The position numbers and the translations under genes are program-made. The notes under the pieces were generated by a model, which made no database searches, was not told the DNA's origin, and was given only the letters and a program-made list of their open reading frames with translations. A stretch of DNA of 29,049 bases from Candidatus Aenigmatarchaeota archaeon (GTDB lineage Archaea > Aenigmatarchaeota > Aenigmatarchaeia > QMZP01 > QMZT01), in NCBI GenBank assembly GCA_043808015.1, contig JAZDFI010000016.1, forward strand, positions 1 through 29,049, in the 5' to 3' direction. Shown in pieces: positions 24,299 through 29,049 of this stretch; position 1 is the stretch's first letter; the number at the start of each line of letters is the position of its first letter.

Positions 24299-25381
24299 AT
24301 GGATGTCGAAAAGCGCTTCGAGTTGGTTTCGCAGGTAGGCGAGGGCGGAGAAATCGTCACTTCAGAAGAGCTGAAGGCGCTGCTCGCTGAAAAGAAACGT
24401 CCGATAGCTTACGACGGCTTCGAGCCGAGCGGGCACGTCCACATAGCGCAGGGCCTGCTCCGTGCGATTAATATTAACAAAATGACAGCCGCCGGCTGCA
24501 AGTTCAAGATGTTTGTCGCCGACTGGCATGGCTGGGCTAACAACAAGATGGGCGGCAATCTCGATAGCATACAATCTGTAGGCAAATACCTCATCGAAGT
24601 GTGGAGAGCCTGCGGCATGGATCTCGAGAACGTCGAGTTCGTATGGTCATCAGAACTGGTGAAAGACGACGACTACTGGAAGAAGGTCATGCAGGTCGCT
24701 CGCAACACGACCGTCGCTCGCATCGTGCGTTGCGGCCAGATAATGGGCCGTAAGGATGCGGATGTGCAGCAGGCGTCGCAGATTCTCTACCCGTGCATGC
24801 AGGCCGCGGACATTTTTCACCTTAAGGCGGACATATGCCAGCTTGGTCTTGACCAGCGCAAGGTCAATGTTCTAGCGCGCGAGATCGGCCCGAAGCTCGG
24901 CTACTGGAAGCCGGTCATAGTCTCTCACCATATGATGATGGGGCTGCTCGCGCCGTCGACCGGCGAAAACGAAAAGATGGAAAGGATAATAGACATGAAG
25001 ATGTCGAAATCGAAACCCGACTCCGCGATATTCATGACAGATTCGCCTGACGAAGTCAAGCGCAAGATTTCCAAGGCTTACTGCCCGGAGAAGCAGGTCG
25101 CGGAAAACCCTGTACTCGAATACTGCAAGTTCATAATCTTCGAGAAGTTCAAGACATTCGATATCAAGCGGCCTGATAAGTTCGGAGGCGACGTGTCTTT
25201 CGAAAGCTACGTAGAACTTGAAAAAGCGTACGCGGAAGGCAAAATCCATCCCATGGATTTGAAAGCGGGAGTGACGTCTCGCCTGAACGAGCTGCTCGAG
25301 CCGGTCAGACAGCACTTCGAGAATAACGCGAAGGCGAAAGAACTGCTAGGGATGGTCAACAAGCTCGAAGTGACGCGCTAG
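24299..25381 (+). CDS. tyrS: Tyrosine--tRNA ligase (archaeal/eukaryote-like)
   Basis: YDGFEPSG.VHIAQG (HIGH variant), ADWH, YPCMQAAD, GLDQRKVN, KMSKS, HPMDLK. Confidence 0.96.
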   Translation: MDVEKRFELVSQVGEGGEIVTSEELKALLAEKKRPIAYDGFEPSGHVHIAQGLLRAININKMTAAGCKFKMFVADWHGWANNKMGGNLDSIQSVGKYLIEVWRACGMDLENVEFVWSSELVKDDDYWKKVMQVARNTTVARIVRCGQIMGRKDADVQQASQILYPCMQAADIFHLKADICQLGLDQRKVNVLAREIGPKLGYWKPVIVSHHMMMGLLAPSTGENEKMERIIDMKMSKSKPDSAIFMTDSPDEVKRKISKAYCPEKQVAENPVLEYCKFIIFEKFKTFDIKRPDKFGGDVSFESYVELEKAYAEGKIHPMDLKAGVTSRLNELLEPVRQHFENNAKAKELLGMVNKLEVTR

Positions 25382-27530: not shown

Positions 27531-28244
27531 CTAATCGAGGTTCCACGGCACGAAGACCGCGGCTTCTTTCGCGCCCATTTCCCACGTGAGCGGCTTCACC
27601 TTTTCAGGGTCCTGCCTCTTGGGATAGACCCAGTATGCCGATACCAGTATGTCCCAGCCGACCCTTTTTTGCGTCCTCAAGTAGCAGCGCAGCTTCTTCA
27701 TGTAGTCGCAGATATACCACTCGCGCCCGCTGGGCTTGGCGTATTCCTTTCTTTTTATAGAGAGAAGGATTTCAAGCCATTCGTTGGCGACGCGCTTGTG
27801 GCCTATCTTCATCATGGCATCTATATCCTCTTTTATAGAAATAAAATCGCCCTTCGATAGCCTGACCTTGAAGTAAGGAAATGGATGAGAATGATAACCG
27901 CCTATGATTTCCGCGTCGAACGAGTCGATGGTGCGCACCACCCGCTTGAATGCGGCGACGTTGCCGTGGACGACTTCCGATGGTTTCCGCTCTTCTGTCT
28001 GGAACGGATACACTTCCTTTATCGTGACCACTTTCTTCCGCTCGTCCTTTATCGCCTTGATGGTGTTCGCGCCTAGTATGACGCCGTTGGTTTCGCGGTT
28101 GTAGACCTCTATCGCCGAAGTGATGAGGGTCTTGAAAGCGCGGCTCTCGATGAACACATCCCTGAACTCCGGCTGCTTGTCCGGTTTTACAAGTTCGACA
28201 TGTTTCGTCCGCTTCGGCCGTTTTTTCCCGGCGGGTTTTTTCAT
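27531..28244 (-). CDS. JAB/MPN+ (JAMM)-domain metalloprotease-like protein
   Basis: RETNGVILG (catalytic Glu pattern) and IIGGYHSHP-x8-SKGD; Lys/Arg-rich N-terminus; ATATTTAA about 30 nt upstream. Confidence 0.7.
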   Translation of the reverse strand: MKKPAGKKRPKRTKHVELVKPDKQPEFRDVFIESRAFKTLITSAIEVYNRETNGVILGANTIKAIKDERKKVVTIKEVYPFQTEERKPSEVVHGNVAAFKRVVRTIDSFDAEIIGGYHSHPFPYFKVRLSKGDFISIKEDIDAMMKIGHKRVANEWLEILLSIKRKEYAKPSGREWYICDYMKKLRCYLRTQKRVGWDILVSAYWVYPKRQDPEKVKPLTWEMGAKEAAVFVPWNLD

Positions 28245-28315
28245 GCTTAATAATTCGGGGTTCCCGTTAAATATGTTGAGTCGCGGGCCTACTCCAGAAA
28301 ATGCTGCACACCGCG

Positions 28316-28323
28316 TTTATAAA
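28316..28323 (+). promoter_or_regulatory. TATA box for the leader-ORF/wHTH transcript
   Basis: TTTATAAA, 30 nt before ATG 28346. Confidence 0.6.
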
Positions 28324-28345
28324 ACATGGCCCGCAATAAAATATT

Positions 28346-28450
28346 ATGCAAACATCGACCATACTCGGAAATGAATTTTCGATTCTTTCAGCCCAGGGTA
28401 TGGCCGATTTCAGGTATTCGCATTTGATGAAGTTTTGGCTTAAGTGCTAA
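28346..28450 (+). CDS. Candidate 34-aa leader peptide
   Basis: MQTSTILGNEFSILSAQGMADFRYSHLMKFWLKC; ATG at leaderless spacing from the TATA box; stop lies within a 14-bp hairpin. Confidence 0.45.
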   Translation: MQTSTILGNEFSILSAQGMADFRYSHLMKFWLKC

Positions 28451-28510
28451 AATTTCATCCCATTTCTAAATCGAATTCCTTCAAAACGAGGGTGTTTGGG
28501 ATGATTTTTA
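28354..28510 (+). promoter_or_regulatory. Structured 5' leader with alternative helices able to sequester the SD and start codon
   Basis: Hairpin 28354-28408; helix 28426-28439/28446-28459; alternative pairing 28455-28462 (TCATCCCA) with 28497-28504 (TGGGATGA); SD hairpin CCTTC/GAGGG at 28478-28492. Confidence 0.55.
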
Positions 28511-28833
28511 ATTACACTTCCGGGCTGAAAGAGGACTGTGGCGACATAAGCGTGAACGAGGTTCTCGACGCCGTTGTCAAACTGTCGAGCAAAATGCTTA
28601 ACCAGAGGAAAATCGAGATTCTGAAGGCGCTGGACGAGCAGCACGGCTCCAGAACGATTACGTCGGCAGTAGATGAAATATCGCAGCAGCTGTGCTGCCC
28701 CAAGTCGACTGTATGGATGAACATCAACTCGCTCAAGGAAGTGGGTCTTATAACGAACGGCTACGGGAAACCGGCGAAAGTCACGGCCGTAGGCATGATT
28801 GTGCTCAATACGATATCTAAGGAGAAAGCATGA
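28501..28833 (+). CDS. Winged helix-turn-helix protein, probable transcription regulator
   Basis: RKIEILKAL...TITSAVDEISQQLCCPKSTVWMNINSLKEVGLI...KVTAVG fits a wHTH; SD GAGGGTG 6 nt before ATG 28501 (track start 28444 is a GTG inside the leader). Confidence 0.8.
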   Translation: MIFNYTSGLKEDCGDISVNEVLDAVVKLSSKMLNQRKIEILKALDEQHGSRTITSAVDEISQQLCCPKSTVWMNINSLKEVGLITNGYGKPAKVTAVGMIVLNTISKEKA

Positions 28834-28863
28834 GACGCAAAAAACACACGGGTTTCGGGAAGT

Positions 28864-29049
28864 ATGGCGCAAAAAAACATTCGGGAGAAGGGGCTTCTGT
28901 TGAAGGCCCTGGAAGACGGGGTAATGAAAGCGATAGAGCTGTCTGCAGCCGGGGTGGTTGTAGGGCTCGAGCCGAAAGTCATAATGCTTTCATCGGCCGC
29001 GGTATTCGCAGGCTCGCTGACATACAAGCTGCTGTCGGCGAAGATGAAG
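28864..29049 (+). CDS. Hypothetical protein, partial (runs off the window end), possibly membrane-associated
   Basis: MAQKNIREKGLLLKALEDGVMKAIELSAAGVVVGLEPKVIMLSSAAVFAGSLTYKLLSAKMK...; a second frame from ATG 28830 is also open to the edge. Confidence 0.5.
   Translation, partial: MAQKNIREKGLLLKALEDGVMKAIELSAAGVVVGLEPKVIMLSSAAVFAGSLTYKLLSAKMK

Follow-up and report, generated by a model that had tools for sequence, protein, structure and literature searches.

Bacterial attenuators of the trp, phe and his (trpL) type encode a leader peptide with codons for the cognate amino acid, and the position of the ribosome on these regulatory codons chooses between mutually exclusive hairpins. Leaders of the ermC/cat type respond to an antibiotic together with the nascent peptide, and in these systems stalling opens the start of the next gene. 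Here we analysed a stretch of 29,049 nt from an uncultured Candidatus Aenigmatarchaeota archaeon (DPANN), which is the entire contig C16 (JAZDFI010000016.1) of genome G000 (GCA_043808015.1; 934,049 bp in 39 contigs, completeness 90.7%) and is called the window in the following. Near its end, and on the forward strand like all features below unless stated otherwise, a short leader open reading frame (ORF) precedes the gene of a 110-aa winged helix-turn-helix (wHTH) regulator (28501..28833), a distant relative of the Tar/TK0271 family. We regard it as rather probable that this arrangement is a ribosome-mediated translational attenuator reading the supply of tryptophan, in which a leader peptide sensing Trp-tRNA gates translation of the regulator through an RNA helix over its start codon.

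The leader ORF (ATG 28346..28450, 34 codons plus TAA at 28448-28450, MQTSTILGNEFSILSAQGMADFRYSHLMKFWLKC) lies behind a TATA box (TTTATAAAA, 28316..28324) and is predicted to be leaderless, and its sole Trp codon (TGG 28436-28438) is the fourth from last. Segment B (GCTAAAATTTCATC, 28446-28459, extended to 28462) holds the leader stop and the next 12 nt and could pair with either of two partners. Segment A (GATGAAGTTTTGGC, 28426..28439) encodes the last leader codons L-M-K-F-W-L and forms a 14-bp stem with B, while segment C (TGGGATGA.TTTTA, 28497..28510, with TGGGATGA at 28497-28504), which resembles A, holds the wHTH start ATG 28501-28503 and is the partner of extended B. Since both helices use B, A:B and B:C are mutually exclusive. 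In the proposed mechanism a ribosome that translates the leader, passes UGG and terminates would allow A:B to form and leave the regulator start free, and A:B would act as a competing lock of the open state in the window's clade. A ribosome waiting at UGG for charged tRNA-Trp would instead cover A and expose B, so that B:C would bury the start and the regulator would not be made. The regulator in turn would bind a box upstream of its own TATA and thereby set transcription of an operon that encodes the Trp-tRNA ligase (TrpRS), small proteins and, in some relatives, a TrpB-like enzyme for indole salvage. The model is built on the ORF, the position of its Trp codon, B:C with its covariation, the clade-specific A:B stem and the gene neighbourhood, all taken from sequence comparison. 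The TATA box, the leader ORF, the three segments and two further hairpins had been named in a first-pass annotation of the window, and all of them were found where it had placed them.

With the trpL type the locus has in common the regulatory codon in a leader peptide and the mutually exclusive hairpins set by ribosome position, but it differs in lacking an intrinsic terminator, in masking a start codon as its output and in using three segments instead of four, as well as in its one Trp codon, its archaeal promoter and its predicted leaderless start. The first-pass annotation had likened it to ermC/cat-type attenuation. This likeness holds for the re-pairing of downstream segments, by which a stalled leader ribosome hides or exposes the next start, but not for the cue, which is here most likely a hungry Trp codon, nor for the sign, as stalling closes rather than opens the start in folding models of the window's type. 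The closest logic is that of the mycobacterial leaderless poly-Cys short ORFs (sORFs), which are described as Cys-responsive translational attenuators in the excerpts of Canestrari et al. (10.1101/834739) used here. According to these excerpts a leaderless first-cistron sORF carries codons of the operon's amino acid, and the position of the ribosome on them decides whether the translation start of the next gene is sequestered, so that control is translational, as we propose for the archaeal locus. The mycobacterial leaders are bacterial and have a run of Cys codons, whereas here a single Trp codon at the fourth (-4) or first (-1) position from the end is found in an archaeon and the gated gene is a transcription regulator. 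The sign differs too, as the excerpts have the stalled ribosome block the sequestering and shortage switch the gene on, whereas for the window's type the prediction is that a stall permits the sequestering helix. In the rpmI-rplT pair, as far as the parts of PMC12548453 at hand describe it, the start is closed by pairing over about 50 nt with the last part of the preceding cistron and is opened by a translating or terminating ribosome, which is similar to B:C. There the upstream cistron is a real protein gene and no amino-acid sensing is described in these parts, while the window adds A:B and a regulatory codon.

Two regulators invite comparison as well. In the passages of PMC6737238 on which we rely, Tar (TK0271) of Thermococcus kodakarensis, an archaeal activator of genes for aromatic amino acids, binds TGGACA-N8-TGTCCA, a 6-N8-6 palindrome upstream of the B recognition element (BRE) and TATA box, and how it senses the lack of Trp, Tyr or Phe is left open. 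The window's regulator resembles Tar as a small wHTH protein with a candidate 6-N8-6 site directly upstream of BRE/TATA and a link to aromatic amino-acid genes, but it has TrpRS and TrpB-like neighbours instead of an aro operon and a different box sequence, and the same passages report no leader ORF for Tar. YtgR of Chlamydia trachomatis controls the Trp salvage genes trpBA, and its synthesis depends on Trp codons (WWW motif) according to the sections of PMC7755916 considered. Here, too, the organism is host-dependent and synthesis of the regulator would need decoding of Trp codons; in these sections, however, the Trp codons lie within the regulator's own precursor and act through transcription termination, and neither a leader ORF nor a start-codon helix is part of the description.

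A search of the full-text literature, whose coverage leaves out subscription journals, returned bacterial and eukaryotic leader-peptide attenuators only and no archaeal one. In archaeal ribosome profiling, upstream ORFs (uORFs) have been noted as candidates, to which the portions of PMC11456600 and PMC10117724 consulted assign no regulatory mechanism. The logic is known from bacterial leader-peptide attenuators; an archaeal case would be new, and the support for it here is comparative. We see the chances as evenly balanced that the locus is the first ribosome-mediated leader-peptide attenuator of Archaea to sense an amino acid, that it gates a Tar-like regulator and thereby the TrpRS/indole-salvage operon of host-dependent DPANN archaea, and that it has evolved in two architectures (Trp at -4 with the A:B lock, Trp at -1 without it). 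If true, ribosome-mediated amino-acid sensing would extend to Archaea, and Tar-type regulators would have a route to answer shortage of aromatic amino acids without a known effector. It would also show how genome-reduced symbionts unable to make tryptophan control its charging and salvage. For genome annotation the leader represents a family of predicted translated sORFs, so far unannotated, that should be flagged.

The leader reading frame and its tryptophan codon

To follow the leader through evolution we used the regions upstream of wHTH orthologues (47-91% identical), which are present in 15 of 22 other genomes of the same family and on 14 metagenome contigs; at E <=1e-6 the protein has matches in 28 of 91 genomes of the order. 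A 14-residue match in Edwardsiella (L049) was treated as spurious and ignored. After removal of L028, L031, L033 and L036 for identical upstream regions and of L011 for having 52 nt upstream only, a close set of 21 distinct upstream regions was left, which together with four distant loci of the same family (L014-L017) makes up a 25-locus set.

In all 21 close loci the TATA box is kept and the leader ATG follows 30-34 nt past its first T (30-31 nt in 18 and 33-34 nt in 3), while in the four distant loci it lies about 8-14 nt farther away. This position matches the usual archaeal distance between TATA and transcript start, and we infer that the transcript begins at, or 1-2 bases from, ATG 28346 and that the leader ORF is translated. 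The ORF is open in 21/21 close loci, with 27-37 codons and a stop 40-72 nt ahead of the wHTH ATG, and also in 4/4 distant loci with 26-30 codons, sitting in each of the 25 between one promoter and the wHTH gene. Across the leader stretches this frame contains no stop, against 47 and 32 stops in the other two frames. The leader ORF that the first-pass annotation had seen behind the TATA box is real as a conserved frame.

A Trp codon is found within the last five codons of 25/25 leaders, at -4 in 12 loci, at -1 in 11 and at both positions in 2, and none occurs among the remaining 587 leader residues. In the last six leader codons Trp accounts for 18% of the residues and F+W+Y for 46.7%, compared to 0.93% and 9.1% in the long ORFs of G000. 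The leader changes in a way unlike a protein under purifying selection. Between the window and its closest relative L003, 5 of 35 leader codons have changed, all of them nonsynonymously and none synonymously, whereas the first 100 wHTH codons show 18 synonymous and 8 nonsynonymous changes, and other close pairs are alike. Because leader changes are nonsynonymous only while those of the wHTH gene are mostly synonymous, the RNA sequence of the leader appears constrained and its peptide mostly free, which fits a leader peptide and is unlike a working small protein. The last five residues are the sole conserved part of the peptide and the rest varies freely. The Phe, Met and Tyr conserved near Trp may mean that the peptide end also acts inside the ribosome.

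The genes downstream point to the same amino acid. The gene behind the regulator, which encodes a conserved small hydrophobic protein of 64 aa (28864..29049), is cut by the contig end and continues on contig C10, to which C16 can be joined because its end overlaps reverse-complemented C10 by 141 identical nt. The first-pass annotation had directed attention to the genes beyond the window edge, and indeed the operon runs past this protein and two 66-aa ORFs to a TrpRS of 374 aa on C10 (NF008925, 454 bits, cutoff 451). TrpRS is encoded downstream on the same strand in 13/13 genomes examined over 5-12 kb (NF008925, up to 516 bits). The distance amounts to 3.3 kb in G008, where genes on the opposite strand intervene; the gene is truncated by a contig end in G005, and in G018 it is read as two overlapping ORFs (L081, 4281-5045 and 5032-5373, model positions 2-225 and 251-361) as the result of a frameshift or assembly error. 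A TrpB-like pyridoxal phosphate (PLP) enzyme (NF009057, ~675-684 bits) is encoded between wHTH and TrpRS in five of these 13 genomes (G003, G004, G002, G005 and G013), and among the loci with ~1.5 kb of downstream sequence a TrpRS or TrpB-like gene is present in L025, L026, L029, L030, L032 and L038. Because of the Trp codon at -4 or -1 in all 25 leaders, the TrpRS and TrpB-like genes downstream and the Tar-like regulator, tryptophan is the probable signal, which the first-pass annotation had missed.

Base pairing behind the leader stop

In order to compare B:C between loci, the 23 nt from the stop onward were paired with the 22 nt around the wHTH start. In the window this duplex reaches -14.6 kcal/mol compared to -7.7 +/- 2.2 for 1000 shuffled B windows (p 0.006), and among the 23-nt windows of the upstream 200 nt none but B pairs equally well with C. 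The duplex is better than 95% of shuffled B windows in 22/25 loci (median z -2.9), and in these same 22 loci no rival upstream window matches the pairing of B with C. Relative to the leader stop, pairing of B begins between -2 and +6 nt in the 25 loci (median +4), and the start codon is within the B-paired span in 24. On the alignment of the 21 leaders 84.1% of the cells of the B:C helix are paired, compared to 29-52% with the 3' partner slid, and the core of B:C is the only helix that RNAalifold predicts unguided. Two adjacent pairs covary between clades, switching from U-A to C-G in 8 and 7 sequences. The same switch occurs once in L013, adjoining its differing second codon, and in L030, L005 and L038 the pairing is kept via G-U changes. 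In the distant clade CGAACCTAT directly after TGA pairs with ATGGGTTCG, which covers the start codon and the next two codons, as a third sequence solution. B:C is present in three clades with three different sequences, and in this comparison it is the universal RNA element of the family. The relatives thus bear out the pairing of B with C over the wHTH start that had been proposed for the window.

The 175-nt leader of the window folds to -49.7 kcal/mol; shuffled versions average -35.35 +/- 4.19 (z -3.42), and not one of 200 was as good. The minimum-energy fold of the leader contains the 14-bp A:B stem together with hairpin 1 (ATCGACCATAC at 28354-28364 with GTATGGCCGAT at 28398-28408), which lies inside the leader ORF. 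Within the five-sequence subclade of the window 69 of 70 A:B cells are paired, with one compensatory change from C-G to A-U and three wobble-keeping changes. The count is confined to this subclade because the A segments of different subclades fall in different MAFFT columns. A:B is a clade-specific element, and further Trp(-4) subclades (L007, L030, L032 and L013) form a version of their own, displaced from the position in the window. Of the exclusive pair A:B and B:C that the first-pass annotation had described, both members are present in the window's clade, but only B:C is universal. Over the 21 leaders hairpin 1 has 64.5% of its cells paired versus 29-42% in slid controls, two-sided changes at 11 of 15 pairs and a score that 0/500 shuffles reach; on this evidence it is supported in part of the family and is not universal. 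The small intergenic hairpin CCTTC-N5-GAGGG (28478-28482 with 28488-28492), enclosed by B:C, overlaps with its 3' arm the Shine-Dalgarno (SD)-like GAGGGTG at 28488-28494 and is formed in the fold with A masked. It had been thought to cover the SD, and relatives also have such a hairpin with other sequences, but there the SD is not always covered, and a role in hiding the SD finds no support.

A search against Rfam 15 gave no gathering-score match in the whole window and no match at E <=1 in 28250-28600. The earlier suggestion that a ligand might switch translation of the regulator found no support, as there was no evidence for a ligand-binding RNA and no Rfam match. Likewise no intrinsic terminator was detected behind A:B or B:C in 28200-29049 and no T run follows B, so that the hallmark of a trpL-type terminator is missing; the terminator-like sites of this region are all elsewhere, at 28218-28234 (+), 28683-28698 (-) and 28758-28773 (-).

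The footprint of a ribosome on the leader was modelled as a mask that reaches from 12 nt upstream to 15 nt downstream of the first P-site base, in thermodynamic folding models that ignore kinetics. In the window the modelled probability that the start codon is paired to B is 0.19 in the free RNA, rises to 1.00 when UGG occupies the A site and falls to 0.10 when the stop does so; the unpaired fraction of AUG is 0.44, 0.00 and 0.52, respectively. The outcome with A masked agrees with this, as the free RNA favours A:B while B:C forms with P 1.00 once A is masked; the folding check proposed in the first-pass annotation thus came out in favour of the switch. A like flip (free <=0.51, stalled >=0.89) was seen in 8/12 loci with Trp at -4 only. 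The ribosomal helicase site is located at about +11. For Trp(-1) loci a 3' edge at +11 nt keeps the start paired in 11/13 loci at UGG and in 4/13 at the stop, an edge at +12 nt in 11/13 and 3/13, and an edge at +15 nt in 2/13 and 1/13. One rule may hold for both types in these models, namely that the start is closed while the ribosome waits for Trp-tRNA and opened when it completes the leader, although this is not secure for Trp(-1). The earlier idea that ribosome position switches translation of the regulator is therefore backed in part, by the conserved ORF, by B:C and, in the window's clade, by the competing A:B stem with its modelled flip. With Trp at -1 it depends on the model in which direction the switch would respond.

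Alternative explanations

Other explanations of the same features have to be weighed against a tryptophan-reading attenuator. In plain translational coupling by RNA unfolding any ribosome that finishes the leader would open B:C, and the leader would only set the level of the regulator, with the Trp codon being incidental. The position of B at a median of 4 nt after the stop and of the start codon in the helix in 24/25 loci would suit this explanation, as would the Trp(-1) loci, in which B:C is the default fold and is opened in silico by a ribosome at the stop, and both an RNA-unfolding model and the rpmI-rplT pair with a spacing of +52 nt are described in the parts of PMC12548453 available. 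We nevertheless think it unlikely, as it leaves unexplained why Trp is at -4 or -1 in 25/25 leaders and nowhere else and why a Tar-like regulator with TrpRS and TrpB-like neighbours is found here. Coupling is also not needed in the window's clade because the free RNA already has an open start (A:B). Termination-reinitiation as the mode of such coupling was thought unlikely at a spacing of 40-72 nt; according to one study it reportedly needs overlaps or very short distances. Short leader peptides that arrest the ribosome at their stop codon are known in bacteria, and a nascent-peptide arrest of the TnaC/SpeFL type would mean that the F-[WL]-M-[KY]-x end, perhaps together with free tryptophan, slows release at the stop and that the ribosome on B keeps the start open. 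The last five residues are indeed the best conserved, with some synonymous changes (TTG/CTG, TAT/TAC, TTT/TTC), and in the folding models a ribosome kept on the stop codon exposes the wHTH start. A single tunnel geometry, however, would hardly accommodate Trp at two spacings (-4 or -1), the rest of the peptide varies freely, and no arrest is needed for an open start in the window's clade, which makes arrest improbable in our view.

Still less can be said for explanations in which the ribosome on the leader has no regulatory role. The ORF might encode a working micropeptide, a partner of the regulator or of the small membrane protein, with the RNA helices merely tuning expression or stability, and it is kept family-wide with a Gly near position 8, a mid S-L and an aromatic end in common. 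Against such a protein, which we hold to be very improbable, speak a variable length of 26-37 residues, the missing Pfam match of the leader ORF and the fact that close relatives differ by nonsynonymous changes only with synonymous sites frozen, the reverse of purifying selection on a protein. The frozen synonymous sites, the strong fold (z -3.42) and the covarying hairpin 1 would in turn agree with an untranslated structured 5' leader, such as a riboswitch or a protein- or tRNA-binding RNA, whose open frame is a by-product. This we rate a little lower still, as the frame survives indels with 0 stops compared to 47 and 32 in the other frames, the ATG keeps a fixed distance from TATA, the TGG is always in frame and the stop always just ahead of B; moreover, of the helices only B:C is conserved family-wide, and no Rfam match was obtained even at E <=1. 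Finally, the regulator is a DNA-binding protein and the repeats are near its promoter, so the inverted repeats might be operator half-sites, or might have arisen by chance. The distance from stop to start and with it the B-C spacing varies between 40 and 72 nt, the sense strand retains G-U pairs, both partners keep their place at the stop and start codons, and neither shuffles nor slid controls reproduce the pairing, which leaves this explanation with next to no credibility.

Several observations nevertheless weigh against a Trp-tRNA-reading attenuator. A look for sequencing runs that contain 28200-29049 turned up DNA runs with a small share and no RNA run. B:C is weak or absent in L010, L027 and L034, and its covariation stems from few independent changes in sequences that are related to each other. 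A:B in the five-sequence subclade is indistinguishable from shuffles (209/500 reach it), and it is absent or weak in most Trp(-1) loci, where B:C is the default fold. For these loci the sign of the response depends on the edge of the ribosome assumed from the P-site codon and at +15 is the opposite of the one modelled for the window. Conservation of F, M and Y beside Trp hints at a role of the peptide end that goes beyond a hungry codon. As for the genes, the wHTH protein scores 34.6 bits against a cutoff of 130 for NF053753 and is below the NCBI membership rule, and both TrpRS and TrpB-like genes are absent within 1.2-1.5 kb downstream in L005, L011/L053 and L035/L036. The linkage to TrpRS could also reflect inherited gene order, and a TrpB-like gene was not found by tblastn in G000, a genome that is 90.7% complete.

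The regulator, its promoter box and neighbouring genes

The wHTH protein matches NCBIfam NF053753 (TK0271/Tar) with an E value of 1.6e-8 over model positions 4-84 of 89, and has weak Pfam matches to HTH_22, TrmB and HTH_5; among solved structures no relative was found at E <=0.01. Its start at ATG 28501, with an SD-like GGTG/GAGG just ahead, is the one given in the first-pass annotation. GTG 28444, which had been named there as a possible true start, was rejected, since 11/11 aligned orthologues begin at ATG 28501 (M-I/M-F/L-x-Y-x-S-G-L) and database relatives have a length of 110-138 aa. A CC motif of the protein had been suggested as a metal or redox sensor, but the first Cys is present in 6/11 orthologues and only the second is conserved (10/11), so this idea was given up.

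A box ACTCCA-N8-TGCACA(C) at 28291..28311 ends 4-5 nt before the TATA box and is a candidate site of the wHTH protein or another regulator. It is found in 20/21 close loci, being degenerate in L013, and occurs once per 12-kb locus in nine relatives. The box is weakly palindromic and its sequence is unlike TGGACA-N8-TGTCCA. The wHTH protein probably binds this box ahead of its own TATA. A repressor at the box would give simple homeostasis by analogy to Chlamydia YtgR, whereas the position of the box resembles that of the activator Tar. When the 21-nt box with <=5 mismatches or a looser pattern of box and TATA was used as a regulon marker in G000, one convincing extra site (C14:31435) and no regulon were obtained. 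This second promoter box, ACTCCGGGAAAAGCTGCAC-N5-TTATATAAAA, is located at C14 ~31435-31800 (+) directly behind a gene similar to elongation factor 1-alpha (EF-1-alpha). About 30 nt past its TATA an 11-codon ORF follows (MGRNISIQYTA, no Trp), and ~90 nt further on a 63-aa CxxC protein is encoded. The regulator may thus have another target at the C14 locus.

The small hydrophobic protein has homologues of 64-79 aa directly after the wHTH gene, for example in L039 (1864-2058) and L035 (1870-2109), and it belongs to no Pfam or NCBIfam family. Distant homologues of the wHTH gene also occur in a second family of this order, in L065 (G060), L066 (G083) and L069 (G090), where they follow a CCTGTACA-N-TATA promoter. 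In these loci the short uORF is of another kind, led by an SD and with Trp conserved (MPYLWKPPLRI, MVMPSNWTEKK and MPLNWMPTT), and in L065 and L069 TrpRS is encoded downstream on the same strand. In L066 the TGG of the uORF is within the inverted repeat CTGGACA-N24-TGTCCAG.

Upstream of the leader the window encodes a Tyr-tRNA ligase at 24299-25381 (+; NF006330, 389 bits), 3 kb away on the same strand and with three opposite-strand genes between, so that a second aromatic aminoacyl-tRNA ligase is nearby. The region between TATA and transcript start is a frequent binding place of archaeal repressors, and a GCC-N-CCAAT-like element is located between TATA and leader ATG in most of the 21 close loci (GCCCGCAAT in the window, 28330-28338). 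The divergent neighbour at 27531-28244 (-) encodes a 237-aa protein with weak JAB/desampylase-like matches. An opposite-strand ORF of 208-237 aa is found at the same place in most relatives, and the intergenic control region may perhaps be common to the wHTH operon and this divergent gene.

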